This document shows positions 25,671 through 63,892 of a DNA stretch of 64,000 nt, piece by piece. The position numbers were made by a program, and so were the translations under genes. Position 1 is the first letter of the stretch. The number at the start of each line of letters is the position of its first letter. The notes beneath the pieces were generated by a model. It ran no database searches. It saw nothing but the letters and a program-made list of their open reading frames with translations, and was not told the DNA's origin. The stretch lies in IMG/VR virus record IMGVR_UViG_3300025674_000014; one strand, 5' to 3'. The stretch is from a virus (lineage: Duplodnaviria; Caudoviricetes).

Positions 25671-25688
25671 AGCATCCTGTTATTATGT

Positions 25689-27215: not shown

Positions 27216-27236
27216 ATTTTATTTTATGCCAGGTAT
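27205..27236 (-). promoter_or_regulatory. 12-bp hairpin enclosing the start codon of the GT60 gene
   Basis: Perfect inverted repeat ATACCTGGCATA-(AAATAAAA)-TATGCCAGGTAT; the ATG at 27215-27213 lies in the 3' arm; no U-tract follows. Confidence 0.55.
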
Positions 27237-27249
27237 CGTTGATTTCAAC

Positions 27250-33318: not shown

Positions 33319-33407
33319 TACTTGAGTTTCATTTGATGTAAAAGAACTATCATCAAAATAAACCCATGAAATAATTGTAAAACTATCATTTAAAACAGGT
33401 AACGTAT

Positions 33408-42400: not shown

Positions 42401-45400
42401 TAATTGTATTACATCTTGTTTTAGTTTTGGTAGGTGTTACAGCTCTTTCAGGTAAGTCGTACATATACCTGTATTTTTCGGTATCGTAATTTTCTTTAAC
42501 TTGAGCTTGGTTTAATGCACAATTATAGTATTTGTATGAACCTAAACCACCGCACATACGACAATTACCATCAGGAGCAGTACCAATAGTAAAGTAATTA
42601 TCAGCTGAATTACTCCAATAACAGGTCATACAAGTACCTTCGGAGTTAATCATATCAACTAATTCACCATTAACAAACAAACATGTATGATCTTTACTAT
42701 AAACACCTACAACATGAGCCCATTGCCTATTATGACCTTGCCCATTGAACAAATCGTTAGTTCTGGTTGCACCTGCACAAGCGCAATAATATCCACCGTT
42801 ACTTCTTCTAGTACCGAAAACAATACCTCTACCGTCGTAACTTCTAGGATAACCGTTCCATTCTGATACAAATAACCAAAAACCATAATCAGCAGCACCA
42901 TTACGACCGTAAGCTGCAATTGTTCTAGCGTAATACCTATTATCGATACATACCCAAGCTTCAACCGAACCCTCATCAGGGTTAATAGTGTCAGCCCAAT
43001 AATTAGGGGTGCTATATAATCTATTATCACCATTCCAATAAGTGTATTGCATACCGGTACCGGTTGATGTTAACGTCGGGTAATTTGTATAGCAAACATA
43101 TATATCAGTATCACCTTGTAAATTATAGAAAAAGCAACCACCTGATGCAGGGTAACTCAACGTATTATTAGGCTCAAAATATAAACATAAATTTGATGAA
43201 TACCCAACTGATGTTGGTGTGTAGTTAATAGTATTTGTTTTTGTAGGTGTGGGTGTATGCACGTAATTAGTACAAACATCACTTGCATCTTGATTAGCAA
43301 CTAAGTTACTTGTAACTATTCCACTTGTTTGTGTTTGTGTTCTTGTTGGTGTGCTACTATAAACTGGTGTGGGTGTTGGTGTGTTTGTACTAGTTTGGGT
43401 AGCTGTTCTTGTATTTGTTCTAGTACGTGTACCTGTAGGTGTTTGAGTTATTGTCTCAGTTATTGATTTTGTTATTGTCGGTGACTGAGTTATTGATTGG
43501 GTTTGTGTTGGTGTAAATGTATAGGTAGGTGTTTGTGTATTTGTAGGGGTAGATGTTTGAGTTTGAGATCTTGTTTGTGTAGGTGTTTTTGTTTGTGTTT
43601 TTGTTATTGTTCTAGTTGTGGTATTAGTTTTAGTAACTGTACCTGTTTGAGTTGGTGTTTGGGTTTGGGTAGGTGTTTGAGATCTAGTAGGTGTAGGTGT
43701 AGTATTAGGATTATCAGGGAATGGGTACTTAATAACTACAATACCATTACCACCGCGTGATCTAGGACCACCACCACCACCGGTACCATCAACACCTGCA
43801 GAGTTACTACCGCATCTACGACCACCGGAGCCACCACCGCCGCAGCCACCAACACCACGGCAGCCACCACCACCACCACCGACCCAACATAGGGTACCAA
43901 ACATTTCGAAACATACACCGACACCACCATCACCGCAACAACCAGTAGTGCCGTCACAAGATAACTGACCTGGTCCACCGGCACCACCACCGCCACCACC
44001 ACTAGATGAAGCACAAACTGCTCCACCATCATGACCTTGACCTGGTATACCAGCACCACCACAACCGCGATAACCACCGTTATCAACACTTGTACCACCT
44101 GCTCCGGAACCACCGGATTGACCGTTAAAACGACCACCGTTCCATGGAAGACCGGAATAACCACCTTGACCACCACCGCAAGCACTAATGGTACCGAACA
44201 TTGAGTTATAACCTCTAGTATAACCTTGATTCCAACTTGGGTTACCAAATGATGCAGCACCTACACTTACTTTAAAATTACCTGTTGTAGCTTGGAAAGC
44301 GCTCAATACAACACCACCGGCACCACCACCGCCAAGACCGTAGTTATACTCACCACCAGCACCACCACCACCACCGGCAACGACCATGGCTTCAATAGTG
44401 TTATAAACTTCACTACTAGCGGTATTGTTTACATAAAAATCATAATCATATACACATCTATAATCTGTACAAAATATATGGTAACGAAAACCTTCACATT
44501 GAATTTCACAACCACCAAACGCTCTTATATAATAAGAACCAGGTGAAGGTGTTACCGTTTGGGTAGCTGTTTGAGTTCCTGTTCTGGTTTGTGTTGGTGT
44601 CTGAGTAGCTGTTCTTGTTTGTGTAGGGGTATGGGTACCTGTTATAGTTTGTGTTGGTGTCTGGGTAGCTGTTCTAGTTTGGGTTGGGGTTCTTGATCTA
44701 GTTGGTGTTTGTGTTCTCGTTCTAGTTTGGGTGCGTGTTCTAGTTTGGGTGGCTGTTCTAGTTTGAGTAGCTGTTCTAGTTTGTGTAGATGTACGTGTTT
44801 GGGTTGGTGTTTGTGTTCTAGTTTGGGTAGGTGTTTGCGTTGGTGTTAATTGTGGTAAATTAAAACGTTGGAATGTTGCTTCATAATCATCTTGTACATC
44901 ATCAGCAGACATTTCCCTGTTATACATTTTAAACTGAGATATATCTCCGTTTAATCTACCTTTAGTATAACTATAACCACCAATTCTAGGTCTAATGTTA
45001 CCGTTATTTAAATCAGTAGGCGTTATATAATTATTATAAGATACTTCTGGATAACCATCTACATATAATGTAGATACCGTACCCGTACCAGGATAAAACT
45101 GATTATTTGGTGGTGTAAAACTACTTGTATAACGAGCAACTCCTTTAGTTACTCTAACATCTTGCATGTAACCATTTAAAGGTTCAGTTGAATATCCTGC
45201 AATATCACCAATTTCAGAATATGTCTGGGTATAGTTTCTTGTATCTGTTGCAGTATCAACTAAAGTACCGTTAACAAACATTCTTAAACTACCGCTTTCT
45301 CTTGTAAAAGCATAATGGTACCATTGACCTGAAGTTACACCATTCCATTCTACTATTCTTGCTCCTTGTGCATACCAACCAGTATCGCCATTAGCTCCTG

Positions 45401-48400
45401 TCCAAGTATTAAACCCATTAGATGCTCTAGTTGTAGAAACGTGTGTTATCCAATTGTATATAGAGTTGAAATAAATCCAATATTCAAGAGTAAAATCATC
45501 AGTACCAAAAGCCAAAGCTGATGATTGCCAAGATAGAAAATCTTCTGACCCTTGAAAATAACCACTAGTACCTTGAAATTTATACTCGTCATCTGTAATC
45601 ATTGCATTACCATTTGTGGTAATATTGTTATCAGAAGCTGATAAACTTGAATCGGTAAAGGTTTGTGATCCACTTAATCCATTCATATGTAAGAGTAAAC
45701 TTACATTTTCATAATACGGATCTACAGGTATATCATTATAACCTAAAGTTGCATAAACTTGATGCCAATTACCATCAGTCAAATCTGTATAACCGTCAGC
45801 ACTTAATGTATCGGCACCGGATAACAGAGTATTGTATGCTTGTAATGTACCGGTGTCAACATTAATACCTAACTGAAAGTTATCGGCATTATCTCCCGAA
45901 GGACCGTCTAACATAAACAATTTAGGACTTACCCCTCCGTCAATAGCAGAACTATCTGTTTTAATCCACATACCAACAGTAAATGCACTAAGGGTAGTTC
46001 CAACATTAAGATTATTATTATCTAGAACTATATCATTTACTGTGTAATATGATGATAATGTATCAGCTATATTATAAGATGGTTCAGATAAATTGTAATT
46101 AGCAAACGTAGCATTTGGTGGTGTAAAATCATCAGTGTAACGAGCTATACCTTTTGTAATTCTTAAATCTTGGATATAACCGTCCATTGAATCGGAATTT
46201 TGAAAGAAGTTAGATGTACCAATTATACTGCTTGAAACACCATTAAACAATGTACCAGAATAAGTTGCAGAGTTAAGTTCTGTACCATCTCTAAATACCT
46301 TAAAGGTATTACCGCTTCTAGTAGCGGCAACATGATACCAAGTATTAGTACTCCAACCTGAAGTATTACCTTGACTTGCATTAACTAAGAACGACCCAGA
46401 ATCAACAGATAAAAATCTTAAACCTTCTTCCCAGTGAAGGGCAAAAACCGTTACGTTACTGCTGTTATCTTGTTCACTATAATCTGTTAATATATAATGA
46501 CTCTCATCACTTGGTAAACTGTCAAATCTAACCCAAGCTTCAATTGTAAAATCATCACTACCAAAATTTGCAGCTGTGTTAGGTACAGTTAAATAACTTG
46601 AACCGGAGCCGTTAAAATAACCACTACTACCGCCCCATTTATACTGATCCGTACTTGTTACTGCACTACCGTATGTTGTAACGGTATTAACTGAGCTACT
46701 ACTATCTGTAAACGTTGTACCATCATTGTTACCATTCATATGTAATAACAATGAAACGTTAGGATAATATGTATCTCCTGATGCAAATTTAAAGTCATTT
46801 ACATTAGTTGTGAGATCATACCAGGTATTAGAATCTGCAGGATAAAATCCAGTAGAAGGTGTTCTTGTTGTTGTAGCTGTTTGTGTGACTTGAGGTGAAC
46901 CAACACAATATCTATTTTTATTGGAATTATATAAATTGTTTATATCTTGTTGAGATAATGTGTCATTAAAGACTTTAGCTTGACCAATTTTACCGGTAAA
47001 TAAATTACATGATGAATTCCAAGGATCTCTACCAATTGCAAAACAACCATGCGATGCATAATCAAGGAACGGTGTAATGGAATTGCTATTAACCATATCA
47101 CCGTTATAATACAATTTTGTACCATCAGTTGGTGAATATGTAAATGATAACTGATTCCATTCACCTGTAGATAAACAACCTGAGTTATAAACACAGCTGT
47201 CATTAACACCGCCTGTACCATATTGAACTTGGGCATATAAACAACTACCGCTGTTTGTACCTAATGCAGCTTGTCTGTTACCAGAATTAGCTGCATCAGT
47301 TATCACGTCAGCATCGGATAAACTATCAAAATTAACCCAAGCTACATAAGTTAAGTTACAACCGCTTGAAAAATCTTTTAATATGGAATCACCAACCATA
47401 CCATCACCACTACTGAAACAGAAGTATTTGATACCACAACTGGTTGTATATGTTGGCCCGCAAATTGATAAATTATAACTATTAGCTAAATCATACCAAG
47501 TTGTACCACTTGTATAACTAGAGGTATTATCAGCATCCCAATATGCTACTAAATTAGTAGAATATGGTGGTGTATTAGTAACGGTAGGTGTATTTGTTTG
47601 TGTTGGAGTTGGTGTTGATACAAATGCGCTTCTAATACTTGATGCATCTTGATTAGCAATTAATCCGCATGTTTGACCATGGGTTGATGTATTTGTTGGG
47701 GTTTGGGTTGATGTTCTTGTATAAGTTGGTGTAGCTGTTCTAGTAGCACTTGGTGTGTAAGTTGGTGTTCTTGTTCTAGTAGCGGTATTGGTAGCTGTTC
47801 TAGTACTTGTTCTTGTTTGGGTACTTGTTCTTGTTGATGTTTGCGTAGGAGTTTGTGTTCTTGTTCTAGTAGCGGTATTGGTAGCTGTTCGTGTAGCTGT
47901 TTCAGTGGATGTTCTTGTTCTAGTATTAGTTGGTGTTCTAGATTGTGTAGGGGTAGGTGTTGATGTAGCGGTTTGGGTTGGTGTTCTTGACTGGGTAGGT
48001 GTTCTTGTTCTTGTACTACCAGGTGTTCCTGATCTTGTGCTTGTACTAGTAACTGTTCGTGTACTAGTTACGGTGTTTGTAGCCGTTTGTGTTGGTGTTT
48101 GAGTTGGTGTTTGTGTTCTTGTCCTTGTCCTTGTAGGGGTGTTAGTTTGTGTATTTGTTCTGGTTTGAGTTGATGTTCTTGTTGATGTTGCTGTCTGTGT
48201 ACTTGTTCTTGTAGCTGTTTGTGTAGATGTTTTGGTGTTAGTAGGTGTTTGTGTAGATGTTCTAGTTTGAGAAGCTGTTCTAGTTTGGGTAGATGTTCTA
48301 GTAGAGGTAGGTGTTTGAGTACAAGTAGCTGTTTGAGTAGATGTTCTTGTATTAGTAGCTGTTTGAGTAGATGTTCTGGTTTGTGTATTGGTTCTTGTAT

Positions 48401-51400
48401 TAGTAGCTGTAGCAGTTGGTGTTTGAGTTGGAGATTTAGAACGTGTGACGGTTGCAGTAGCTGTCTGAGTAGCTGTTCTTGATTGAGTTCTAGTTCTGGT
48501 AGCCGTTTCAGTAACTGTAGGTGTCCTAGTTTGTGTTTGCGTAGCTGTTGGTGATGCCCCTTGAGTGGCTGTTCTAGTAGATGTTTGAGTTGGTGTTTGA
48601 GAACGGGTACGTGTATTTGTTCTTGTTTGTGTTGATGTCTGTGTAGATGTTCTTGTATTTGTAGGTGTTTGTGTTCCGGTAGTGGTTGTCGTATTAGTAG
48701 CTGTTCTTGTCTGGGTTGGTGTATAAGTTGGTGTATTAGTTCTTGTCTGAGTTACTGTTGGGGTTTGTGTAGATGTTTGTGTGGATGTTGGTGTAGATGT
48801 TACCGTCTGTGATGGTGTCTGGGTTGGTGTAAATGTTCTTGTCTTTGTATTAGTAGGCGTTTGTGTTGATGTTGGTGTGCTTGTTACTGTATTGGTAGCA
48901 GTTTGGGTAGGTGTTTGTGATCTTGTTTGTGTTGGTGTAGCTGTTTGTGAATGTGTTCTAGTTTGTGTTGGTGTATTTGTTGATGTTGCTGTTTGAGTTG
49001 GTGTTTCAGTTCTGGTAGCTGTTCTTGTCTGGGTAGGTGTTTGTGTTGGTGACTGAGTAGCTGTTAAAGTAGCTGTTGGTGTGTTTGTCTGAGAAGACGT
49101 TACTGTTTGGGTAGGCGTTGGTGTTTGTGAACTTGTTTGTGTTGGTGTTCTTGTTGCAGTTACATCAGGTGTATCTGTCTGGCTAGGGGTTCTTGTAAAT
49201 GTAGCTGTTCTAGTGTAAGTAGGTGTTTGTGTTCTAGTATTTGTTCTTGTTTGGGTAGGGGTTTGTGTAGGTGATTGAGTAGCTGTTTGTGTTACTGTAC
49301 CTGTTGGTGTTTGGGTTGACGTTCTAGTTTGGCTAGCTGTTCTAGTGGTTGTTCTAGTAGCGGATTGGGTAGGTGTTCTTGTTCTTGTTGCTGTATTAGT
49401 TGGTGTGTAAGTTGGTGTTGATGTAGATGTTTGACTTCTTGACTTAGTAGGTGTTTTGGTTTGTGTAGCTGTTGGTGTTTGGGTTTGTGTACCTGTTCTT
49501 GTACTTGTTGGTGTTTGGGTTTGAGTAGATGTTTTAGTATTAGTAACGGTAGCTGTTCTTGTCTGTGTTGGTGTACCTGTTCTTGTAGATGTTTGTGTAG
49601 CTGTTCTTGTACCGGTAATGGTAGCTGTAACCGTTGGTGTTTGTGTTTGAGTAGATGTTCTTGTTGCTGTTGGTTCAGCTGTTTGTGTTTGTGTTGTTGT
49701 TCTTGTCTGAGTTTGTGATCTAGTTTGTGTTGATGTTCTTGTACTTGTAGCTGTTGCCGTAACAGTTGATGTACTGGTTGGTGTTCTGGTTTGTGTATTT
49801 GTTCTAGTTTGTGTAGGTGTTTGTGTTCTTGTAACAGATGCTGTTGGTGTTTGTGTTTCTGTTCTTGTCTGTGTTGAAGTTCTTGTTACAGTAGATGTAG
49901 CTGTTTGTGTTGCTGTCTGAGTTGCAGTTGCTTCTGCTGTAGGTGTATTAGTAGCTGTTCTTGTATATGTCGGTGTTGCTGTTTGAGTTGGTGTTTGAGT
50001 TGCAGTAGCTGTACTAGTTTTAGTTCTTGTATTAGTAGCTGTTTGTGTAGCTGATCTAGTCTGGGTAGCTGTTCTTGTTTGAGTGGGTGTTGCAGAGTTT
50101 GTTGCTGTAACTGTTGGTGTAGCTGTATTAGTAGCTGTCTTTGTCTTACTAGCTGTTCTTGTTTGGCTAGCTGTTCTGGTTTGTGTATTAGTTCTTGTTG
50201 ATGTAGCTGTTTGCGTGTATGTTGGTGTATTAGTTCTTGTTCTTGTTCTGGTTGATGTAACTGTAGGTGTAATTGTTCTTGTTTGTGTAGGTGTTTGAGT
50301 TGCGGTAGATGTTACAGTTGATGTTTGAGTAGGTGTTTGTGTAACTGTTGATGTTGCTGTTGGTGTTTGAGTTGCTGTTCTGGTTTGGGTAGGTGTTTGT
50401 GTACCTGTTTGTGTATTTGTTCTAGTCTGTGTAGATGTTCTAGTAACTGAAGGTGTTGGTGTTAATTCAGGTAAGTTAAATCTTTGTCTTAAACTATTAT
50501 AACTTGATTCAATTTCATTCTCAGTTAATGCTGAATCGTATAGTTTTACGATAGCAATATCTCCAAACATGTCAGCTTCTAAAGTTTCACTGGTATTAAA
50601 GTTTCTACCAACCGCAAAAGCAGGCTGTGTGGTACTTCTTGAAGATGGTACGGTTAAAGTACTACCTAACTGGTCAGCATTAAAATATAATTTTAATTCA
50701 TTATTTGATAATGTTAATGCAACTTGAAACCATCCAGTTGATGATGATAAAGCTGGTAAACTACCATCAATACCTATAGTATAACTTGTACCACCTGATC
50801 TTAATTGACCAAATAACCTATTAGGTGCTGCTGAATAACCACTTCTGACTTTGTTAATTTTTATTAAATTACTATCATCAACATATAAGTACATTATCTG
50901 ATGATATCTATTAGTAGAAAATGAATCATCATCATATCTAACCCAAGCTAAAACCGTAATATTATCATTAAGAACGGGTAATGTACTTAAATTAGAAACA
51001 CTTTGTAAATAGTTTACACCACCAAAAGCTTGCCAAGTAGGCCAATTATAATATTTCGGTTGAGTTGCTTGATATAAATCAACGTCGCCAACTATTACAC
51101 TATCAATGCTATTTGATGTAATATCATCTACACCAGTAGCTGGATAAAATTCTAAAGATTGCGGTGTAAATGCAGCGTCATTTATAAACGGATATTTAGT
51201 GTTGTTATAATCAGCTTCAATTTCACTAGCAGTTAAAGCTTTATCTAGATAAAATCTTGCAACTGATAAATCTCCGTTCATATATGAACTATTACCTGAC
51301 ATAATAGTCCAATTAGCTCCTGATGTAATATCTCCACCAGGTCTATTACTAGCAGATGTAGCTTCTAATACACCATCTACATAAATTCTTAACTTAGTAG

Positions 51401-54400
51401 AATCCGCAACATAAGCTATATGATGCCAAGTGTCATCATTATAAGTATCAGAAGTTCTAGCTAATCTTTCTGTACCTGATGAATTTCTTTCCCAGAAATC
51501 TAGCTTACCACCATTAGTAGCATCTCCAAGCCCCCTCATACCTACCATAAAGTATGAAGAAGTACCGTTATAGTCGGTAGCTAAAGGTTTTGTATAACTA
51601 TGTGCACTTTGAGTAGAATCTAATTTTACCCAGAAAACAAATGAATATTGTTTATTATCTAAGGTAAAACTTCTACCTGTTGCTATATTATCATTACTAC
51701 CATCAAATGATAAGTAAGCTGGTGAATCTGGACTATAAGTTGCTCCATTAATAGTAGCATTATACGCTCCAGATGTTAAATCATATAAAGTTGAAGTTAA
51801 TGCACGCCTACTACCAGCATTAATATTATAATTAAATTCTAAATCTGAAGTTAATGAAGTTTCAGTACCCGTTTCGTATCTTCCAACTCCTTTAGTAACT
51901 CTAAATTCATCAATATAACCTTGTAATTGATAATTATCACCAATTTTAGATCCTGCAATGTTTAACGTTGTACTTGATCCATTATCAATAGAACCAGTAT
52001 AACTGCTGTTATTAGCCTCCATTACACCATCAACAAACAAATAAAATACACTATCTTTTCTTTGAAGTATTACATTATACCAAGTATTTGTACTTACTGA
52101 AGTGGTTGAAGCTAATACAGGTGCCCCATCATTCTTTAAATTATAAGCCCAAAATGTAAATAAATTTTGCCTATTCGGGTGGTCAGCGTAAAGTACCCAT
52201 TTATCACTACCCCAATTTCCGTCAACATAATTTTTAGTTATAGTAGTACCGCTACTACCGTGAGCGGTAATATAAACCCAAGTTTCAATAGTAAAATCAC
52301 CTGAACCGAATGCTGTACTAGAACTTGTACTATAACTTAACCAATCATTATTACCGTCAAAGTAAGCACTACTACCACCAAACTTAAATTGATCGGTACT
52401 AATTTGAGCATTACCGTTAACAGAAGCTGTTCTATTAGCACTACTACTATCAGTAAATGTGGTAGAACCGTCAGCTCCATTCATATGTAACAGTAACGAA
52501 GTGTCGCTATAATAGGTATCCGAAAGATCTCCGGTAGTGGTTTGATTAGCAGCATCGTAATATGCTATCAAATTACTGGTTATTGGCCCGGTAGCTGTTT
52601 GTGTTGGTGTATGAGTAGCTGTTCTGGTTTGGGTAGGGGTATTTGTTGCTGTTCTTGTATTAGTTGGTGTATTGGTTTGGCTAGCTGTTCTTGTTTGTGT
52701 ATTTGTTCTTGTAGCCGTAGCAGATACTGTTGATGTAGGTGTAGACGTTTTTGTAGCTGTTTGTGTTGGTGTTACTGCTCTAGTAGCTGTTTGGGTAGCT
52801 GTTCTAGTATGGGTAGCTGTTCTTGTATAAGTTGGGGTTGATGTTTGTGATCTTGTTCTTGTTTGAGTACTAGTTACCGTTGAAGTAGCAGTCTGTGTTG
52901 ATGTTTGAGTTGGTGTTGACGTTTGGGTATTTGTTTTTGTCTGTGTAGCTGTTCTTGTAGCTGTATTTGTAGCAGTCTGAGTAGCTGTTCTGGTTTGTGT
53001 AGGTGTTTGTGTTCTGGTTTGGCTAGCTGTACGTGTTTGTGTTCTAGTTCTGGTAGATGTAGCTGTTTGTGTTGCTGTAGGTGTAGATGTTTGTGTTCTT
53101 GTATTAGTAGCCGTTCTTGTCTGTGTTGGTGTAGATGTTTGGGTTGGTGTTCTGGTTCTTGTAACATCTGGTGTATCTGTCTGACTAGGTGTTCTAGTAA
53201 AAGTCGATGTTCTTGTATTGGTAGGTGTAGGTGTTGATGTACTAGTAGGGGTTTGGGTAGGTGTTTCAGTTCTAGTTACTGTTGATGTATTTGTTCTAGT
53301 TTGGGTTGGTGTTTGGGTAGCTGTTGGGGTTGCTGTTTGACTTGCTGTACGGGTCTGTGTTCTTGTTCTTGTATTAGTAGCAGTCTGGGTTGGGGTTTGA
53401 GTAGATGTTTGAGTTGCTGTAGCTGTTTGGCTTGCTGTTCTTGTAGCTGTTTGACTTGCTGTTCTTGTAGGTGTTTGGGTTTGGGTTGCTGTTGCAGATT
53501 GGGTAGCTGTTCTTGTTTTTGTAGGTGTTTGTGTTCTGGTTTCAGTAGCTGTTTGAGTAGATGTTCTGGTTTGCGTTCTTGTTGGTGTTTGGGTTGAAGT
53601 TCTTGTTGCGGTAACTGTAGCTGTTTGACTTGCTGTTCTGGTCTGTGTTCTTGTTCTAGTAGATGTTGATGTTTGTGTTGCTGTTGGTGTTGCTGTCTGA
53701 CTAGCTGTTCTTGTCTGTGTATGAGTCTGGGTAGCTGTTCTTGTTACCGTCTCCGTTGCTGTTCTAGTTTGGGTAGGGGTTTGGGTTGCTGTCTGAGTTG
53801 CTGATTGGGTAGCAGTCTGACTAGCTGTACGTGTTTGTGTTCTTGTTCTTGTTGATGTAGAAGTTCTGGTCTGGGTAGGTGTTCTGGTTTGGGTTGCTGT
53901 AGGTGTTTGAGTTGATGTTTGAGTAGGTGTTTGTGATCTTGTTCTTGTAACTGTTTCAGTTGCTGTTCTTGTCTGGGTAGGTGTTTGTGTTCTAGTATTA
54001 GTAGCAGTCTGTGTTGGTGTCTGTGTAACTGTACTTGTTACTGTTGGTGTTTGAGTAGCTGTTTGAGTTGCTGTATTAGTAGCTGTTTGGGTAGGGGTTT
54101 GTGTTTGGCTAGCTGTTCTTGTTTGAGTAGGGGTTTGAGTTTGGCTAGCTGTTCTAGTTACTGTAGCTGTTTGAGTACCGGTTTGTGTATAAGTTTGTGT
54201 ATTTGTTCTAGTCTGGGTAGATGTTCTAGTAGCCGTATTAGTTGCTGTTTGTGTGGGTGTTTGAGTTTGGCTAGCTGTTCTGGTTTGTGTAGGTGTTTGT
54301 GTTTGTGTTGCTGTTCTAGTATTGGTTGGTGTTTGCGTTCTTGTTCTAGTAGATGTTTGTGTAGCTGTTTGGGTGGGTGTTTGTGTCTGAGTTGAAGTTC

Positions 54401-57400
54401 TGGTTTGGGTTGGTGTAGATGTTTGTGTAGATGTTTGTGTATTTGTTCTAGTTTGGGTAGGTGTGCTTGTTGATGTTTGGGTAGACGTTCTTGTTTGGGT
54501 AGGGGTATTAGTAGCAGTCTGAGTTGCTGTTTGTGTCGGGGTTTGTGTTGGTGTCTGAGATGCTGTTCTAGTTACAGTAGCTGTTGATGTTTGAGTTGAT
54601 GTTCTTGTCTGAGTAGGTGTTTGTGTTTGTGTAGATGTTTGGGTTGGGGTTCTTGTTCTCGTTACATCAGGTGTATCTGTTTGACTTGGCGTTCTTGTAA
54701 AAGTTGATGTTCTTGTCTGTGTAGGTGTTTGTGTAGAAGATTGGGTAGCTGTTTGTGTCGGGGTTTGTGTAGGTGTTTGAGTACTTGTTGCAGTAGCTGT
54801 TTGTGTATTTGTTCTGGTTTGGGTAGGTGTTTGTGTTCTAGTATTAGTAGCAGTCTGTGTTGGTGTTTGTGTCTGTGTAGGTGTTTGTGATCTGGTCTGT
54901 GTAGATGTTTGCGTATTTGTTCTTGTTTGGGTTGGTGTTGGGTATCTAGAAACGGTAGATGTTTGAGTATTTGTTCTAGTTTGGGTTGCTGTTTGAGATG
55001 CTGTTCTAGATGCAGTACGGGTAGCTGTTTGTGTATTTGTTCTTGTCTGGGTAGGAGTTTGTGTTCTCGTTTCAGTAGCAGTTTGAGTAGCAGATCTAGT
55101 TTGTGTTGGTGTTTGAGTCGGTGTGGATGTTCGTGTTTGAGTAGCTGTTCTAGTTTGGGTAGGTGTTTGTGATCTAGTTTGTGTTGCTGTTTGAGTTGAA
55201 GTTCTTGTCTGAGTAGGTGTTTGTGATCTAGTTTGGGTAGCAGTTTGTGTTGCAGATCTAGTTTGGGTTGGTGTCTGGGTAGGTGTTTCTGTTCTTGTCT
55301 GTGTTGCTGTTCTAGTAGATGTTCTTGTTTGTGTAGAAGATCTTGTCTGTGTTGGTGTGTTAGTTGAAGTTTGGGTTGCTGTATTAGTAGCTGTTTGAGT
55401 TGGTGTTTGAGATCTTGTCGGTGTTTGGGTTTGTGTAGATGTTCTAGTATTAGTAGCAGTTTGGGTAGTTGTTTGAGTAGCTGTTGGTGTAGGTGTTTGT
55501 GTTCTCGTTCTAGTAGATGTATTGGTAGCTGTTTGTGTAGATGTTCTTGTCTGTGTTGGTGTGCTTGTAGATGTTTGTGTAGCTGTAGGTGATGGGGTTT
55601 GAGTAGCTGTTCTAGTTACAGTAGATGTTGGCGTTCTTGTACTTGTAACTGTTTGGCTAGCTGTTCTTGTTTGGGTAGGTGTTCTGGTAGATGTAATTGT
55701 AGCTGTTTGAGTAGCTGTTCTTGTCTGTGTTGGTGTCTGGGTTTGGGTAGCTGTTCTTGTTGCTGTATTAGTAGCTGTTTGAGTAGGTGTTTGGGTTTGA
55801 GTAGCTGTTCTAGTTTGTGTAGCTGTTCTAGAACTTGTTCTCGTTCTAGTTTGGGTTGGTGTTGATGTTTGGGTATTTGTTCTTGTCTGGGTAGGTGTTT
55901 GAGTTCTAGTAGATGTAGATGTTTGTGTATTTGTTCTTGTTTGAGTAGCTGTTCTTGTCTGTGTAGGTGTTTGTGTGCTTGTATTGGTAGCTGTTTGTGT
56001 TGCTGTTCTAGATTGTGTTCTAGTCTGGGTTTGAGTAGCTGTTCTTGTAGCTGTAGCAGATCTAGTCTGGGTCGGTGTTCTTGTTGAAGTGTTTGTAGCT
56101 GTCTGAGATTTTGTTCTTGTAACCGTTTGTGTAGGTGTTTGTGTTGATGTTCTAGTTACAGTTGATGTAGCTGTTTGAGTAGCTGTTCTAGACTGGGTAG
56201 GTGTCGGTGTTTGTGTTGATGATTGGGTTGGTGTTCTAGTTCTAGTAACATCAGGGGTGTCTGTTTGACTTGGCGTTCTTGTAAAAGTAGGTGTTCTGGT
56301 TTGAGTAGGTGTTTGTGTTCTAGTATTGGTAACGGTTTGGGTAGCCGTCTGTGTAGGTGTTTGAGTTTGGCTAGCAGTTCTTGTTGATGTAACTGATTGT
56401 GTAGGTGTTTGTGTTCTTGTCTGTGTAGCTGTTCTTGTCTGACTAGCTGTTCTTGTAACTGTAGCTGTCTGAGTTGGTGTATTAGTAGCTGTTTGTGTAG
56501 CTGTTCTACTAGCTGTTCTAGTAACTGTAGGGGTTTGAGTTGATGTTTTAGTTTGTGTTGGTGTTTGAGTTCTAGTAACGGAAACTGTATTAGTAGCTGT
56601 TTTTGTAACTGTAGCTGTCTGAGTTGGGGTATTGGTAGCTGTCTGAGTTGGTGTAGATGTTCTTGTCTGAGTAGCTGTTCTTGTAACTGTAGGTGTTTGT
56701 GTACTTGTTCTTGTTAATGTGCTAGTAGCTGTTCTAGTGGCCGTAACCGTTGGAGATGCTGTTCTGCTTACGGTTGATGTTACTGTAGCTGTACGTGTAA
56801 CTGTGACTGTAGGTGTTTGTGTTGCCGTTCTTGTAATTGTTCTAGTAGGTGTTCTTGTTGGTGTTGGATCAATCTTGTTAATAACTTCTAATGGTAAGAA
56901 ATTAGTAGAAGGTGATGAAAGGGCTTGTTGTTTAAAAAATGAAATATAAGACGATTGCTGCACGAATTCGGTAAAACCTTGTAAGAAAGAAGGTAATCCA
57001 GGAACGTAAGTCTCAAATACAGGGCTTAATTGATTTGTAGGTCTTAATCTGAATACTCTTTCTGTAGCTGATGTTCTGTTAAAAACAGTAAATGCTTCAT
57101 CAGTCATACCAGCACCTGTTGCTAAATTCATATTAACAGCTGATGTATATAAGAACCAAGATAAACCTGATCTCATATATTGAGCTGATAATGCATTAGC
57201 GCCTAACGGTGGTATGAAACCACTTACAGAGAGTGGTAACACACTAAGTGAATCAACATACACCGCATATGTACTACCAGGCACAAATTGAGTGAAACCT
57301 TGCAAGAAGTCAGGTAACCCAGGTGTGTAAGTAATACGAGATGGTGAATTAGGATTGTCAGAAGCAAATATTCTATCTACGTAATCGCCAGATGATAGTA

Positions 57401-57473
57401 TCGTGCTACTAACATTTAGCCTATTTTCTTCGATAAACTGTAATATTTGCCCGGAAAACGTGATTAAGCCCAT
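33408..57473 (-). CDS. giant virion fibre/adhesin-like protein (8021 aa; ~10,074 aa if joined to 27250-33318)
   Basis: Uninterrupted 24-kb ORF preceded by TAAATA; alternates (T-X)n stalks with many LamG/ConA-like domains (LLLHMNG...FTDSS...WYHxA) and two Gly-rich domains; no signal peptide is evident. Confidence 0.9.
47690..50460 (-). repeat. (Thr-X)n low-complexity coding stalk, approx. bounds
   Basis: About 920 codons of T-X alternation between LamG blocks. Confidence 0.9.
52590..56865 (-). repeat. (Thr-X)n low-complexity coding stalk, approx. bounds
   Basis: About 1400 codons of T-X alternation following the N-terminal domain. Confidence 0.9.
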
Positions 57474-57482
57474 ACGTAAATA

Positions 57483-57488
57483 TATTTA
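57483..57488 (-). promoter_or_regulatory. TAAATA late-promoter motif before the giant gene
   Basis: Ends 9 nt before the ATG at 57473. Confidence 0.5.
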
Positions 57489-57519
57489 ATCACCTACGTA
57501 TAAGGGAAATAAAAGAATC

Positions 57520-57801
57520 TTAAGAAAAATTAATTTTTTCTGACTTAAGTTTAAACTTAAACTCTTTCTTGTATTTATTAGAAAAGTATGTAATTTCTTT
57601 ACCTAGATATTCAACATAGTTTACATTTATAACAGCTAGAGGCTCGTCTTTATAATAGACATATGTAGTGGATAAACACAACTCTCCTTCAAGAGGTATT
57701 GCCGGTAAGATAACATAATCATCTTTACCTGCTTGAAATGAAACTGCATTATCTTGAGCATGTGGCTCACCACCTGTTCCTATTAATTTAAATGTATCCA
57801 T
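57520..57801 (-). CDS. small stand-alone paralog of the C-terminal domain of the upstream mucin-like protein
   Basis: LIGTGGEPHAQDNAVSFQ...KINFS aligns with LTGTGSAPHPAANGVTFQ...NVNFST; 1-nt stop/start overlap with the upstream gene. Confidence 0.75.
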   Translation of the reverse strand: MDTFKLIGTGGEPHAQDNAVSFQAGKDDYVILPAIPLEGELCLSTTYVYYKDEPLAVINVNYVEYLGKEITYFSNKYKKEFKFKLKSEKINFS

Positions 57802-60443
57802 TATGTAGAAAAGTTAACGTTACCATCAACAAAGTTACCTAAGAAAGGTCCATCTCCGTTAGCATACTCAACTCTGAATTGGTCTCCTGTATATCCATTG
57901 TAAGAGTAACTCACAACTGATCTAATACTACCATCAACGTAGATATACATAGTAGCAAAAGCTGGGCCACCGGATAAATCAGTATCAAACTCAAATATGT
58001 CATTTGCAGCAGATTGGAATGTAACACCGTTAGCTGCAGGGTGAGGTGCTGATCCGGTACCTGTTAAACTGTTATTAAAGGTAAGAGGAGGTGTTGATGT
58101 TTGAGTTGGTGTGTAAGTAGGTGTTCTAGATTGGGTAGGTGTTTGGGTAGATGTTCTTGTATTAGTCGGTGTAGCTGTAGGGGTTTGTGTCCTTGTTCTT
58201 GTTTGTGTAGGTGTTTGAGATCTAGTAGAGGTTTGTGTCGGACTTTGAGTAGCGGTTTGCGATCTAGTTTGGGTAGGTGTTCCTGTCTGTGAAGATGTTC
58301 TTGTTTGGGTTGGTGTTTGAGATTTTGTTCTTGTATTAGTAGGTGTTTGTGTTCTAGATTGTGTTGGTGTTTGTGTCGGTGATTGAGTAGGTGTATTTGT
58401 ATTTGTTTGTGTTGGTGTTTGTGTTAAAGTTTGTGTTGGTGTACGAGTTTGTGTTGATGTTCTAGTAGTAGTTGGTGTTCTTGTTCTAGTTGCACCTGGT
58501 GTATCAGTTTGACTTGGTGTTCTTGTGAAAGTTGCTGTTCTTGTGTTAGTTGGTGTGGTAGTTGATGTATTAGTAGGTGTTTGAGTTGCGGTAGAAGATT
58601 GAGTAGCTGTACGGGTAACAGTTGGTGACGATGTTCTAGTAGATGTTTGTGTGTTTGTTCTAGAAGAAGTTACTGTAGGTGTAGCTGTTGAAGTCTTTGA
58701 TTTTGTTCTAGTTACAGTGGGTGTTACAGTATTAGTAGCTGTTTTAGTTTGTGTGGGGGTTTGAGATCTAGTAGGTGTTTGTGTTCTTGTAGATGTTCGT
58801 GTTGGTGTTTGAGTTGATGTTTGAGTAGGGGTTTCTGTTCTTGTTTGAGTAGCTGTTCTAGTATTAGTTGGTGTATTGGTAGCTGTACGAGTAGGAGAAG
58901 CTGTAGCTTCTGGTGTTAAAGTTGATGTAGATGTTACCGTTCTAGTATTAGTAGCGGTTTGAGAAGCTGTTCTAGTGGCTGTTTTTGTATTAGTAGGTGT
59001 ATTTGTCGGTGTTCTACTATTAGTGGGTGTTCTAGTTCTCGTAACGTCAGGTGTATCGGTTTGCGAAGGCGTTCTAGTGAAAGTAGCTGTTCTTGTATTA
59101 GTTGGTGTGGATGAATTTGTAGCTGTTCTAGTAGTAGTTTGTGTTGGAGATTGAGTTGCAGTTTGTGTAGCGGTTCGAGAAGATGTTCTCGTGTTAGTTG
59201 GGGTTACTCCAGGTGTACCTGTTCTGGTGGATGTTTGTGTAGGGGTTTGTGTAGAAGTCTGAGTTCTTGACCTTGTTTGTGTAGGAGATTGGGTAGGTGT
59301 TTGAGTTCTTGTAGTTGTAGCAGAACGAGTAGGTGTAACTGTATTAGTTGGTGTAGATGTTCTTGTAGAAGTCCTTGTAGCAGAAGCTGTTTGAGTTGGT
59401 GTAATAGTTGACGTTCTAGTTTGGGTAACACCGGGTGTTGCTGATCTAGTTGACGTTCTCGTTTGTGTTGGTGTGATTGTTGATGTAGCGGTATTAGTAG
59501 CGGTTGTTGTAGCTGAACTAGTTGCTGTTTTAGTATTTGTTATAGTGGCTGTTACGGTTGGTGTAGATGTTGACGTTCTAGTAGCCGTAGCAGTTTGAGT
59601 TGGTGTTTGTGTGGGTGTAGTTTGAGGTGTACCAGTTGAAGTAACTGTCTGCGTAGGTGTTTGAGAAGATGTCTTAGTGTTAGTAGCAGTAGATGTTTTT
59701 GTTCTGGTAGTTGTTTGTGTCGGGGTTTGAGTAGCAGTAGCTGCTGGTGTAGCTTGAGGTGTATTTGATGATGTTGCAGTAGGGGTAACTGTTGCAGTTC
59801 TTGTAGGTGTTTGAGTAGCGGTTTGTGTTCTAGATCTTGTAGCTGTTTGAGTAGCTGTTTGTGTTCTCGTTCTAGTAGATGTTTGCGTGGGGGATACTTG
59901 AGGAGATGCAGTAGGTGTAGCAGTAGATGTAGAAGTTGTTGTTCTAGTTGGTGTTGCAGTATTACTTGCTGTTCTAGTTGGTGTTTGTGTTGAAGTTACT
60001 GCAGGGGACGCTGTTGGTGTGGCAGTAGATGTAGAAGTTGATGTTCTAGTTGGTGTTTGAGTTGTAGATTGAGTACTTGTTCTAGTTACCGTCTGGGTAG
60101 ATGTACGGGTATTAGTTGGTGTTGGTGTTGGTGCAGATCCTTGAGTAGGTGAAACTGAAACAGTCTTTGTAGGGGTTTGTGTTCTTGTTCTAGTATAAGT
60201 CGGGGTAGCTGTTCTTGTAGCTGTTGGTGTTACTACTGGATTTGGTTCATTATCAACCGAAACCATACCAACATGCATACCTAACGGTTGCAAGCCAGAT
60301 CTTCTAGAAGATCTGTTAGCTTGCGGTCGGGGATCCAATATACAGGAGGGAATAGCTCGCCTACTATTTAAAGGATTATTAGGACAAATATTGGCTATAT
60401 TATTTTGGTTACCACTTCCAAATTGATTTGATCTACTCGCCAC
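57801..60443 (-). CDS. mucin-like Thr-rich virion protein (880 aa) with small C-terminal beta domain
   Basis: GTG start after AATAAATA; ~70-aa N-terminus, ~710-aa (T-X)n stalk and ~95-aa C-terminal domain. Confidence 0.85.
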   Translation of the reverse strand: MASRSNQFGSGNQNNIANICPNNPLNSRRAIPSCILDPRPQANRSSRRSGLQPLGMHVGMVSVDNEPNPVVTPTATRTATPTYTRTRTQTPTKTVSVSPTQGSAPTPTPTNTRTSTQTVTRTSTQSTTQTPTRTSTSTSTATPTASPAVTSTQTPTRTASNTATPTRTTTSTSTATPTASPQVSPTQTSTRTRTQTATQTATRSRTQTATQTPTRTATVTPTATSSNTPQATPAATATQTPTQTTTRTKTSTATNTKTSSQTPTQTVTSTGTPQTTPTQTPTQTATATRTSTSTPTVTATITNTKTATSSATTTATNTATSTITPTQTRTSTRSATPGVTQTRTSTITPTQTASATRTSTRTSTPTNTVTPTRSATTTRTQTPTQSPTQTRSRTQTSTQTPTQTSTRTGTPGVTPTNTRTSSRTATQTATQSPTQTTTRTATNSSTPTNTRTATFTRTPSQTDTPDVTRTRTPTNSRTPTNTPTNTKTATRTASQTATNTRTVTSTSTLTPEATASPTRTATNTPTNTRTATQTRTETPTQTSTQTPTRTSTRTQTPTRSQTPTQTKTATNTVTPTVTRTKSKTSTATPTVTSSRTNTQTSTRTSSPTVTRTATQSSTATQTPTNTSTTTPTNTRTATFTRTPSQTDTPGATRTRTPTTTRTSTQTRTPTQTLTQTPTQTNTNTPTQSPTQTPTQSRTQTPTNTRTKSQTPTQTRTSSQTGTPTQTRSQTATQSPTQTSTRSQTPTQTRTRTQTPTATPTNTRTSTQTPTQSRTPTYTPTQTSTPPLTFNNSLTGTGSAPHPAANGVTFQSAANDIFEFDTDLSGGPAFATMYIYVDGSIRSVVSYSYNGYTGDQFRVEYANGDGPFLGNFVDGNVNFST

Positions 60444-60467: not shown

Positions 60468-61382
60468 TTATAGTTTGAGAGAAGTAATGATTTTATCAAC
60501 ATTAAAGATCTCTCTTTCATCAGTATAAGGACATTCATGAGCGTGAGCAGCTAAATCATAATCAAAATAATAACTGTTCATCAAATGAGATTTGCCTTTA
60601 GGATCATTAGCCTTAATATTGTGATGAAGTTTATAACCGAACATCTCAGGGTGAGTACCAATCCAAAGTACGGTAGAAGGTAAACCAAAAGCTGCTGCAG
60701 CATGCTGCATGCATGAGTCAATTAGAAGTCTTTTATCCGCTGCTTTTAGAATAGAAAACAATTCAATATTACTCATTTGTGCATTTACTACTTCACAACC
60801 TTGAACATGAGGAGAGTTAGGTCTGCAAACCTGGTAAACGTGATAACCTTTATTGAGAGCAGCATTAGCTACCTCCGAAGCAACACTATAAGGCATATCG
60901 CGAGTCCAAGCATATATATGTTGCTGTTGGTCTTCACCGAACGGACCACCGTTGGTTTGCAGAACTAAAATTGGTCTTTGATCTTGATTAAGCCATCTTT
61001 GATGAGCCTGTTGACCATACATGTTAAGAGGAATGTTAGGTCTATGTTTAAGTTCATTAAACTCTAACCCACACATTGTAAACCACGTCTGCATAAGAGG
61101 TGTCTTCTGCATAATGTGAGTAGATTCATAATAAGGCTCTCTTCTAAGAACAATAGTATCTTTATTGTTAATAAATGTTTCGTAAAAATAAGGTGTACCG
61201 TGAGGGTAAACTCGTTCAATATCTGGGTTATGAAAGAAAATCTCTGGCCAGGAAGCAGTTACAATTATTTTTCTATCAGGATATTTTTCCTTAAGAGGTT
61301 TTATAATAGCAGTAGAAGCAACGTTCTTACCTAAACCACCTTCTACATGTAATACAACATATTTTTCTTTTGACTCGCTCAT
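60468..61382 (-). CDS. GT-B fold glycosyltransferase, GT9 (heptosyltransferase)-like
   Basis: VLHVEGGLGKNVASTAIIKPLKEKYPDRKIIV, ILVLQTNGG...RDMP, LLIDSCMQHAAAAFGLPSTVLWIGT.P..FGY. Confidence 0.75.
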   Translation of the reverse strand: MSESKEKYVVLHVEGGLGKNVASTAIIKPLKEKYPDRKIIVTASWPEIFFHNPDIERVYPHGTPYFYETFINNKDTIVLRREPYYESTHIMQKTPLMQTWFTMCGLEFNELKHRPNIPLNMYGQQAHQRWLNQDQRPILVLQTNGGPFGEDQQQHIYAWTRDMPYSVASEVANAALNKGYHVYQVCRPNSPHVQGCEVVNAQMSNIELFSILKAADKRLLIDSCMQHAAAAFGLPSTVLWIGTHPEMFGYKLHHNIKANDPKGKSHLMNSYYFDYDLAAHAHECPYTDEREIFNVDKIITSLKL

Positions 61383-61411: not shown

Positions 61412-63853
61412 TCAAGTTATATCACTCCAAACATTTACTCTTTGAATAGTACCATCAGCACCTAATTGATTATCTATAACGTCTTGAACTTCATCAAGAA
61501 ATTCTGTCTGAGTGTAATTAGGACCATTAGGATAACCGCCGCCGCCATATAATAATGAAGCAAGTAAAATATCATTATTATAAAGTAAGAATATAGGACT
61601 ACCACTATCACCAGACGATACACCGTTAGGAAAAAATAACGTTCTTGCAGGTAATAAAGAACTAGCTGTACTTAAATTTTGATATTTATTTATATAAAAT
61701 TGATAAGCCCCGGGGCAAGTAGTTCTACACGCCCAAGGATAAATTTTTTCATTTAAAGCTATAGCATATGCATTATCTAAACAAACAGTTCCAGGAGCCG
61801 GGGTAAAGGATCTACCACCACCTACAATTACTGGAAACGAACAAGCTGGTACGATTTCCGAACCATTTAAATTTTTGAATTCAGCAAATTTATATATTTT
61901 TATATCTGGATCGGTAATAGGGTTTGATAATTTACCTACAGCAACATCAGTATAATAATTACCTAATACTGAACTTTGGTTAAAATAACAACCTTGTAAT
62001 CCACTACTGTTACAAGCCCAGCATGCTACTTGAGCAGATACTCTATCCCCATTAGGTTTAATAAAATTAATACAATAACCAGTAGTTAATCCCTGATATT
62101 GAGAATCAGATTGTATATTATTATGAGGTGTATTATGAGCAGCTACTATAAAGTGTCTATCAGTAATCATTACATAATTACTAAATTCTGTATGTAATGC
62201 GCAAGAACCACTATCATAAAAATACGGATTACCACAACATGTTACATTAGAAAACCCTTGACCAGTTAAACATGAATAGCACGCTGCGTACCTAACACCT
62301 GATACATCAACTATATTTCTACAACTATACCACCAAGCACTGGTATTTACATTACCGCCGCTGCAATTAATATAATTGTAAGTAAATGAATTTGCAGCAG
62401 TTATTGAAGTAATACTGTTAACACCTAATCTACAAAATTCATAATTAGTGCAATTTAAAAAGTTTCTAAAACATTGACAATAATAACACGCTGTTGGTGT
62501 TCTTGTTTGAGTCGGTGTTTGTGTTCTTGTTCTAGTATAAGTTGGTGTCCTGGTTTGAGTACGTGTTCTTGTAGGGGTTGGTGTACATGTTGATGTTGCT
62601 CCGCTTGTGCAAGTTTGAGTATTTGTTCTAGTTTGTGTAGGTGTTTGTGTTGATGTTCTAGTATATGTAGGTGTATTGGTTGGTGTTCTGGTATTTGTAC
62701 AAGTTGGGGTAGGGGTACCGTATTTAGATACCGTTGATGTTTGCGTGGCTGTTCTTGTAGCTGTTCTTGTTTGAGTAGGTGTTCTAGTTGGTGTACCTGT
62801 TTGAGAAGCTGTTCTTGTATTGGTGGGTGTTGGTGTAGGTGTATCTGCAGAAGTACATGTGATTGTTGGTGATACCGATCTCGTTCTTGTTTGAGTTGGT
62901 GATAAAGTAATTGATTTGGTTATAGTAGGGGTTTGTGTAGGGGAACTACCGCAAGTAACAGAAGGTGTTAATGTTCTTGTTCTAGTATTAGTTGCAGTAC
63001 GGGTTCTAGTTGGTGAACTTGTTCTACTATTAGTAGGTGTTTGGGTTGAGGTAGGGGTGGGGGTAGCGTAACTTGAAACCGTGCGTGTCGGGGTCAATGT
63101 ACGAGATTGAGTTAAAGTTCGTGTTGGTGTTGATATATTTGTACCCGAACACGTTTGGGTTGGTGTATTAGATCTTGTTTTAGTATTTGTGGCGGTTTGT
63201 GAGCTTGTTTTAGTTTGGGTTGATGTTTTGGTATTAGTTAAAGTCGATGTTGATGTTCTAGTGCAAGTTACATTTGGTGTATCCGTTCTTGTAGCTGTTT
63301 GAGTAGGGGTTTGTGTTCTTGTTTGAGTTGGTGTTCTTGATCTTGTATATGTTGTTGTTGGTGTTCTACTATTAGTTGGTGTTGATGTAGGTGTAGATGT
63401 TGAAGTTCTGGTATCTGTAGGTGTATAAGTATGTGTTCTCGTACAAGTAGGTGTTTGAGTAGGTGTTCTAGAACAGGTTACATTAGGATTAGTTACTAAA
63501 GGATCAGTAGCGGTAGGGGTAGATGTTTTTGTTCTCGATTTAGTATTTGTAGGTGTAGCTGTAACAGCTAAACAACTCGAACCAAAAGCTGTTGGTGTTC
63601 TTGTTCTAGTACCTGTAAAAGTAGCAGTATTTGATCTAGTTACTGTTTGAGATGGAGTGGTGGTTGGGCATGATGTAACTGTTTGTGTTGGTGTGTTAGA
63701 TCTTGTAGGGGTTAAAGTCGCGGTTTGCGTAGGTGTCCTAGTTTGAGTTACATACGGGTCGGCCCCTTGACGCATTTTACCCCAGTTGCTCGCTTGAGCT
63801 GGACCTGGGTTTGCGCTTCTAATTAAATCTCTTACTGTTGGTAAAGTAGCCAC
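61412..63853 (-). CDS. mucin-like Thr-rich protein with C-terminal trypsin-like serine protease domain
   Basis: ~420-aa (T-X)n stalk, Cys-rich linker, then HFIVAAH (His), TDVAVGKL (Asp) and SGDSGSPIF (Ser) catalytic-triad motifs. Confidence 0.8.
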   Translation of the reverse strand: MATLPTVRDLIRSANPGPAQASNWGKMRQGADPYVTQTRTPTQTATLTPTRSNTPTQTVTSCPTTTPSQTVTRSNTATFTGTRTRTPTAFGSSCLAVTATPTNTKSRTKTSTPTATDPLVTNPNVTCSRTPTQTPTCTRTHTYTPTDTRTSTSTPTSTPTNSRTPTTTYTRSRTPTQTRTQTPTQTATRTDTPNVTCTRTSTSTLTNTKTSTQTKTSSQTATNTKTRSNTPTQTCSGTNISTPTRTLTQSRTLTPTRTVSSYATPTPTSTQTPTNSRTSSPTRTRTATNTRTRTLTPSVTCGSSPTQTPTITKSITLSPTQTRTRSVSPTITCTSADTPTPTPTNTRTASQTGTPTRTPTQTRTATRTATQTSTVSKYGTPTPTCTNTRTPTNTPTYTRTSTQTPTQTRTNTQTCTSGATSTCTPTPTRTRTQTRTPTYTRTRTQTPTQTRTPTACYYCQCFRNFLNCTNYEFCRLGVNSITSITAANSFTYNYINCSGGNVNTSAWWYSCRNIVDVSGVRYAACYSCLTGQGFSNVTCCGNPYFYDSGSCALHTEFSNYVMITDRHFIVAAHNTPHNNIQSDSQYQGLTTGYCINFIKPNGDRVSAQVACWACNSSGLQGCYFNQSSVLGNYYTDVAVGKLSNPITDPDIKIYKFAEFKNLNGSEIVPACSFPVIVGGGRSFTPAPGTVCLDNAYAIALNEKIYPWACRTTCPGAYQFYINKYQNLSTASSLLPARTLFFPNGVSSGDSGSPIFLLYNNDILLASLLYGGGGYPNGPNYTQTEFLDEVQDVIDNQLGADGTIQRVNVWSDIT

Positions 63854-63862
63854 AATCTAATA

Positions 63863-63868: not shown

Positions 63869-63892
63869 ATCTACTATAATATATTTAAAGAT

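Follow-up and report, generated by a model that had tools for sequence, protein, structure and literature searches.

Some members of the Peptidase S6 family of serine proteases (IgA1 protease/SPATE) cut mucin-type O-glycoproteins, and the consensus serine motif of the SPATE enzymes is GDSGSP (PMC6956023). The depolymerases known from phage tailspikes and fibres degrade glycan, peptidoglycan or teichoic acid, and proteases are not mentioned at all in a 2018 review of the barrier-breaching enzymes of phages (PMC6116005). Here we describe a gene for a predicted stalked protease of 813 amino acids (aa), found in a 64,000-nucleotide (nt) stretch of viral DNA (IMG/VR record IMGVR_UViG_3300025674_000014); the whole stretch is called the window below. 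The C-terminal domain of the protein appears to be a remote S6-like protease of clan PA, and we consider it reasonably probable that the protein is a late phage appendage whose distal protease cuts a surface (glyco)protein layer or matrix of the host near the particle.

The window represents part of the genome of an uncultured aquatic T4-like phage. Phage genes in it specify a major capsid protein of the gp23 type, a scaffold protein of the T4 type, an S77 prohead protease and a baseplate hub resembling gp5. The capsid protein shared only ~33% identity with those of the nearest deposited phages, which are cyanophages. The stretch was present in full in eight aquatic/freshwater metagenome runs; since all of them were flagged as possible sources, they give no independent support. 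In an RNA run, only 7% of the words of the stretch were present.

The 813-aa protein consists of four parts, namely an N-terminal module, a (Thr/Ser-X)n stalk, a Cys-rich segment and a C-terminal domain bearing a predicted catalytic triad. The gene and the parts of its product are located as follows:

61412..63853, minus strand: stalked-protease gene, 813 aa (GTG start codon 63851-63853, stop codon 61412-61414)
63749..63853, minus strand: conserved N-terminal module, residues 1-35, putative particle anchor (from orthologue conservation)
62489..63748, minus strand: (Thr/Ser-X)210 stalk, residues 36-455, 420 aa (from Thr parity)
62198..62488, minus strand: Cys-rich segment, residues 456-552, 12 Cys (from the Cys count)
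61415..62362, minus strand: predicted S6-like chymotrypsin-fold serine protease module, residues 498-813 (from the homologue alignment, fold matches, hhalign and ESM features)
62135..62137, minus strand: predicted catalytic His573 in the motif VAAH (AAH is residues 571-573, 62135-62143), 7/7 homologues
61946..61948, minus strand: predicted catalytic Asp636 in the motif TDVAVGKL (DVAV is residues 636-639, 61937-61948), 7/7 homologues
61595..61612, minus strand: GDSGSP, residues 748-753, with the predicted catalytic Ser750 at 61604-61606, GDS in 7/7 homologues

The start codon is forced, because an in-frame TAG is located two codons upstream of the GTG, and the same GTG start and N-terminus were found in the orthologues from the near-identical locus L009 and from two other phages (proteins P0002 and P0003).

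The initial annotation of the window, made without database searches, had proposed a trypsin-like serine protease on a mucin-like stalk and had listed AAH, DVAV and GDSGSP as the motifs of an ordered triad. These motifs lie within 1 nt of the positions it gave, and the triad held up in the comparison of relatives: none of the homologues covering these positions has lost His, Asp or Ser (the basis of the 7/7 counts above), down to 24-29% identity. The family is tiny. Six matches were returned by phmmer when 1.84 billion cluster representatives were searched exhaustively, and word-indexed searches added one more. The identity of these relatives to the window protein (P0001) was 90% for fragments, 65% for P0002 and P0003, 29% for P0007 (997 aa) and 24% for P0008, and the blocks around His, Asp and Ser were recognisably similar in every relative covering the three positions.

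Other searches yielded no further relatives. A tblastn search of 50,697 phage genomes with P0001 and P0008 gave no match, and pattern scans of IMG/VR with the same two proteins found no relatives, the alignment being too variable for a pattern. Searches of Pfam, PHROGs and NCBIfam with the domain or the family were empty even at permissive thresholds; because the family is invisible to these collections, such genes are now annotated as hypothetical. In the PDB, sequence and profile searches gave chance-level matches only (an SDR oxidoreductase and USPL1). The search for longer homologues found none, a result of little weight, as low-complexity candidates filled its list. Peptidase_S74, the phage intramolecular-chaperone protease, had no Pfam match at E<=10, and the fold matches were to clan PA instead. 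PROSITE-style trypsin patterns were not used as evidence; the Ser pattern matched P0001 only and the His pattern matched none of the proteins.

To predict the fold, AlphaFold2 models based on the eight-sequence alignment were used; trimming the domain did not improve the model. A Foldseek search of the PDB gave 161 matches at E<=1e-3, and all of the best 50 of the 161 had the chymotrypsin fold. Re-alignment with VIA gave Z ~11, with ~185 of ~240 residues superposed at ~4.2 Å and spanning the whole protease domain. When 48,161 chains were searched with VIA without bias and independently of Foldseek, the best 50 were all proteases or pseudo-proteases of clan PA (Z 7.0-8.8). The ESM Atlas shape search led to a 'Serine protease family' cluster (template modelling score 0.71, normalised to the hit) and to two phage-dominated clusters, and ESM feature searches placed P0001 (0.98) and, independently, P0008 (0.97) with serine protease, Peptidase_S6 and Trypsin clusters. 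The BFVD library of viral structures contained nothing at E<=1e-3, its weak matches being insect-virus trypsin-like proteins, and the AFDB clusters gave weak Trypsin/Peptidase S1 rows only. The prediction of a chymotrypsin-fold (clan PA) serine protease is thus supported at the level of models: structure prediction had been suggested in the initial annotation as the check for this fold, and both models, low-scoring as they are, match PA-clan chains (VIA Z ~11).

As a separate observation, PF02395 is assigned to 14% of the members of one of the phage-dominated chymotrypsin-fold clusters of the ESM Atlas, and Dockerin_1 to 86% of the members of the other; the phages concerned belong to Uroviricota. 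S6-like proteases may therefore be commoner in uncultured phages than their annotation shows.

The fold matches also included pseudo-proteases, namely the HGF beta-chain, haptoglobin, protein Z and the scabies-mite SMIPPs. Together with the high ratio of nonsynonymous to synonymous substitution rates (dN/dS) of the domain, 0.40, they would suit a non-catalytic binding module of the haptoglobin/HGF type that serves as a receptor-binding tip. Against this stands the retention of the triad and of the GDSG oxyanion motif in every homologue across 24-90% identity. Such universal retention would not be expected after the loss of catalysis, so we regard a dead binding module as very improbable.

The family to which the domain is related was evaluated by profile comparison. 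As a reference for S6, EspP of plasmid pO157 and six diverse plasmid S6 domains, all confirmed as PF02395, were aligned. In hhalign, the phage family matched these seven domains with Prob 80.8% and E 1.3e-5 over 166 columns, and H573, D636 and S750 fell on the invariant His, Asp and Ser columns of S6 (H127, D156 and S263 of EspP in our own residue count). The controls stayed at background: Prob was 1.3% for the phage family against HtrA (DegP/DegQ/DegS), even though the His and Asp blocks were paired, and 0.2% for S6 against HtrA. The real score of 46.2 compares with 13.8 +/- 2.4 (maximum 21.5) in 60 column shuffles of the phage alignment and with 19.9 for the reversed alignment. In addition, the GDSGSP of P0001 is identical to the SPATE consensus.

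Because the S6 profile match comes with a paired triad and flat controls, the domain is best described as a remote S6-like member of clan PA and not as a trypsin, judging from its sequence profile. The word 'trypsin-like' stands for the fold only, since no S1/Trypsin model matched and Peptidase S6 (IgA1 protease/SPATE) was the only significant family-level relative in these profile comparisons. The initial annotation had also offered a maturation protease for the Arg-rich stalks. This found no support on specificity grounds: the residue six before Ser750 is Gly744 (Gly in most homologues as well), which is the equivalent of chymotrypsin position 189 if no indel is assumed, and an Asp is thus absent from the presumed 189 position, leaving no basis for Arg/Lys specificity.

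The part of the protein that would carry this domain begins with the N-terminal module. Over residues 1-35 the window protein and its L009 orthologue showed 100% aa identity (dN = 0, dS 0.09), and identity to P0002 and P0003 was 61-77% across 22-23 residues. A search for the 35-aa motif in every open reading frame (ORF) of the window and of the related loci detected it in the orthologues only and not in the other Thr-X proteins. No hydrophobic signal peptide was visible at the N-terminus when the sequence was read by eye.

The next 420 residues agree with the ~420 aa of (T-X)n described initially. Residues 36-455 contain 42% Thr, distributed 172:3 between the two dipeptide registers, and the register never changes. 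The Thr register consists of 82% Thr and 11% Ser, and the X register mainly of Pro, Arg, Gln, Ser, Ala and Asn. At the DNA level only degenerate repeats were found, with periods of 12, 18, 24 and 30 (multiples of 6). In composition the stalk can fairly be called 'mucin-like', and it is probably O-glycosylated, as predicted from the adjacent glycosyltransferase genes. The same strict dipeptide register, without a single-residue shift, was observed in every (Thr-X)n stalk of the window (27250-60443 and 62489-63748, minus strand). Thr was distributed between the registers 664:3 across 1,455 residues and 431:4 across 949 residues of an 8021-aa ORF, 306:9 in an 880-aa ORF and 1:641 in a 2022-aa ORF. 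The unbroken register can be due either to expansion only in multiples of 6 nt or to selection for an extended structure with a two-residue period.

The Cys-rich 'linker' of the initial annotation is present, with 12 Cys in residues 456-552, and its extent needs correction. From about residue 498 onwards the segment is conserved in P0007 and P0008 without the Cys and falls inside the fold alignment; about half of it therefore belongs to the protease module.

Selection along the protein was estimated as dN/dS against the 801-aa L009 orthologue. The values were 0 for the N-terminus (residues 1-35), 0.04 for the first part of the stalk, 0.27 for the rest of the stalk, 0.35 for the Cys-rich segment and 0.40 for the protease, so the protease domain would be only moderately constrained. 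In phage fibres and receptor-interacting tips, the base is conserved and the distal domain evolves faster, and the gradient of the stalked protease resembles this pattern.

The start of the gene is not preceded by a Shine-Dalgarno sequence. Since the gene is close to the end of the window, the region beyond position 64000, which is upstream of the gene, was read via L009. The following motifs were found in front of the start codon:

63862-63869 and 63881-63888, minus strand: two copies of TTAAATAT, resembling a T4 late promoter, the first one 8 nt before the start codon

The consensus of T4 late promoters is TATAAATA. In the orthologues, TATAAATA or ATAAATA occurs 5-9 nt before the GTG. In the 64 kb window, TTAAATAT is under-represented (five copies, ~10 expected), with every copy on the minus strand. 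Four of the five lie 4-8 nt before start codons (14344-14351, 21700-21707, 57482-57489 and 63862-63869, all minus strand). The genes behind these four are the stalked-protease gene, the gene of the 8021-aa protein and two genes in the block 13278-21694 beside the head genes. This arrangement suggests that the copies of TTAAATAT are late promoters abutting leaderless or near-leaderless genes, and the motif at the stalked-protease gene fits late, nearly leaderless expression. The late expression that had been read from a TAAATA motif is in line with these findings, as a late-promoter-like motif abuts the start both in this T4-like phage and in the orthologues.

The same motif bears on whether the protein is attached to the particle. 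A soluble stalked protease freed by lysis, unattached, could remodel the matrix or neighbouring cells, with particle dispersal or receptor stripping as the outcome. It would agree with the failure to find a docking partner of the N-terminus and with the position of the window gene, which borders the structural block and has glycosylation genes around it, instead of lying between neck and portal. In the phages encoding P0002 and P0003, however, the orthologue is located between the genes for neck gp15 and portal gp20. In addition, the 35 N-terminal residues are conserved under strong purifying selection, and the late-promoter-like motif is common to structural genes. We consider release as a free enzyme improbable.

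The following mechanism is proposed for the preferred reading, that of a particle-borne appendage. Residues 1-35 would anchor the protein to the particle, and the 420-residue (Thr/Ser-X)n chain would form a long extended spacer, O-glycosylated by the neighbouring GT60-like and other glycosyltransferases. The Cys-rich segment comes next, and the distal C-terminus would be the highly divergent clan-PA protease, with its intact predicted His573-Asp636-Ser750 triad and the GDSGSP oxyanion/nucleophile motif, acting as a tethered extracellular endoprotease. After lysis, it would cut either a proteinaceous or glycoprotein layer on the host surface or else the surrounding matrix, as far as the particle reaches. 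The stalked protease would thus be a proteolytic counterpart of the tailspike depolymerases. The gene, its architecture, triad conservation, the fold class, the relationship to S6 and a context of late genes and structural modules are what the analysis shows. Catalytic activity, glycosylation, virion attachment and substrate are parts of this scheme that we infer; display on the virion and action on a host S-layer or matrix, which had been one of the two initial suggestions, are likewise derived from the architecture and the genomic context.

A number of results weigh against this reading. Both AlphaFold2 models are of low confidence (predicted local distance difference test scores of 44.5 and 46.9); they are confident only in the strands around the three motifs, and the second beta-barrel is largely unmodelled. 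Neither PF02395, searched with all eight family members, nor any other protease model gave a match at E<=10. No docking partner of the N-terminal motif was identified. The protein contains 31 Cys, which are not expected to be oxidised in the cytoplasm, and its folding would therefore depend on post-lysis conditions. Finally, for an enzyme the protease has a high dN/dS, which may point to relaxation.

The genes next to the stalked-protease gene were also analyzed. Downstream, two features are oriented in the same direction:

60468..61382, minus strand: downstream neighbour, 304-aa GT-B/GT9-like putative glycosyltransferase (weak PF01075 match, phrog_8954)
21722..60443, minus strand: co-oriented context block with Thr-X proteins of 880, 8021 and 2022 aa and glycosyltransferases

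The 304-aa GT9-like gene is syntenic in L009 and L010 and is related to pelagiphage genes annotated as 'putative glycosyl transferase'. In the block there are two PF11397 (GT60-like) N-acetylglucosamine (GlcNAc) transferases and an FkbM+HtrL fusion, and the GT9-like gene is co-oriented with them. The 8021-aa ORF (33408-57473, minus strand) encodes Laminin_G_3 (LamG; ConA-like lectin) domains, the stretch counts of which sum to at least 15, and Gly_rich_2; it has a beads-on-a-string organization in which the domains are placed on Thr-X linkers of 33-1,455 residues. The 2022-aa protein has an N-terminal LamG (Laminin_G_3) domain, a Thr-X stalk and a Cys-rich domain. Upstream, past the edge of the window, lies the end of another protein, of 1424 aa, in which L009 shows a Thr-X stalk together with a Cys-rich domain.

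The comparison with a distant locus, L002, revealed a similar set of genes. The protease of P0007 is C-terminal to a PT-rich linker there, and its gene adjoins genes for a 1601-aa LamG fibre protein, a GlcNAc-transferase and HtrL. Since this association of protease, Thr/Pro-rich linker, lectin fibre and glycosyltransferase is found both in the window and in the distant L002, it is deeply conserved.

This co-occurrence of the protease with PT/Thr-X sequence, LamG fibre and GT60/HtrL genes at both loci can also be explained by a processing enzyme for the glyco-stalk proteins of the phage itself. Its targets would be (Thr-X)n or the linkers between domains in the neighbouring giant lectin proteins, or its own stalk; for example, LamG units could be freed from the 8021-aa beads-on-a-string precursor during or after assembly. 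The explanation is attractive because the protease travels with Thr-X/LamG proteins and because S6, the only significant family-level relative, includes enzymes that cut mucins and other O-glycosylated proteins (PMC6956023). However, a processing enzyme would need neither a 420-aa spacer nor a conserved N-terminal anchor, and the faster evolution of the domain relative to the N-terminus fits interaction with a host. Moreover, no conserved cleavage motif was identified, and no giant Thr-X protein was seen in the P0002 and P0003 loci (13-17 kb of sequence). Processing of the phage's own proteins is therefore a tentative and rather unlikely alternative to the cutting of a host layer by a tethered protease.

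A more speculative combination of these elements, to which we would likewise give a low chance, is a self-encoded 'mucin system'. It would comprise more than 4,000 residues of strictly alternating (Thr-X)n chains as substrate, GT60-type and other glycosyltransferases, at least 15 LamG beads and a tethered S6-type mucinase-like protease. Such a protease would specifically recognize O-glycosylated Thr-X/Pro-Thr sequence, and its role would be to tailor the glyco-fibres of the phage itself or to cut a mucin-like glycoprotein coat of the host. If this were true, a glycoprotein-directed protease would have been found for the first time in the particle of a bacteriophage.

Some other features of these loci are noted in their own right. 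Large Cys-rich C-terminal domains without a Pfam match cap two other Thr-X proteins (27250-28800, minus strand; L009 1545-5819), and the 2022-aa ORF has 54 Cys in total. At its end (57801-58280, minus strand) the 880-aa Thr-X protein has a small non-repeat domain of ~100 aa; the last 159 residues of the protein matched phrog_15511 (unknown function) with E 5e-10, and the matched stretch was mostly the preceding Thr-X sequence. Proteins with Mtd_N, the N-terminal domain of the major tropism determinant, are encoded near the protease orthologues in related phages (L001 14691-16694, L009 758-1135), so a diversity-generating or receptor-binding module may be located nearby. The window also contains genes for a QueF-type nitrile reductase and a calcineurin-like phosphoesterase (7992-8885 and 6662-7420, plus strand) with a gene for an AAA-domain ATPase between them, which hints at 7-deazaguanine metabolism in the phage.

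Compared with known systems, the phage domain shares with the S1 trypsin/HtrA proteases (PF00089, PF13365) the double-barrel fold found by structure search, the H-D-S order and the D(V/I)A(V/I)xKL and GDSG motifs. It differs from them in that no sequence model matched, the His is not followed by a Cys and the presumed position 189 lacks an Asp.

The layout of the whole protein is similar to that of phage depolymerase tailspikes and fibres, which also have an N-terminal anchor, a spacer and a distal enzyme, are late, and evolve faster at the tip than at the base. The tip here is a predicted protease, in contrast to the enzymes of the known depolymerases, and the spacer is a mucin-like chain, whereas the spacers of depolymerases are trimeric beta-helices or coiled coils. 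No link between phage fibres and either Peptidase_S6 or chymotrypsin-fold proteases came up in a literature search. With a protease tethered to the particle, proteinaceous and glycoprotein coats, such as S-layers and mucin-like adhesins, would join the barriers that phages can dissolve.

For the stalk itself, the closest analogues are the Pro/Thr 'PT-box' linkers of cellulases and mucin domains, which are O-glycosylated. Like them, it is a low-complexity, Thr/Pro-rich extended spacer, and glycosyltransferase genes are present in the co-oriented block of the phage. Unlike the PT-box linkers, the phage stalks hold strictly to a register of two residues for hundreds to 1,455 residues, and X can be Arg, Gln, Ser or Asn besides Pro.

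The closest relatives of the domain remain the S6/SPATE proteases (EspP, Tsh/Hbp, SepA and Pic; PF02395), with a significant profile match, paired His, Asp and Ser, and an identical GDSGSP nucleophile motif. An LIxPQ(Y/H)xxxAxH block around the catalytic His is similar in S6 and the phage family, most clearly so in P0007 and P0008. In both cases a globular protease ends a long stalk, which in EspP is beta-helical (PMC6956023). The differences are considerable: PF02395 itself did not match, and identity in the aligned columns is 19%. The type Va autotransporters of S6 consist of a signal peptide, an N-terminal protease, a beta-helical passenger and a C-terminal beta-barrel translocator, none of which is present in the phage protein, where no autotransporter Pfam domains were found. 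The phage protein has instead a C-terminal protease, a (Thr-X)n stalk, extra insertions and many Cys, and it is encoded by a phage, whereas S6 proteases are encoded on a proteobacterial chromosome or plasmid.

The relationship to S6 ties the phage enzyme to the IgA1-protease/SPATE family, which is otherwise known almost only from proteobacterial autotransporters and would be extended in both architecture and host range. The relationship also suggests a class of substrate, namely O-glycosylated Pro/Thr-rich chains. Thus, both the catalytic fold and the distant family of the stalked protease are known, and its architecture and biological setting are new.

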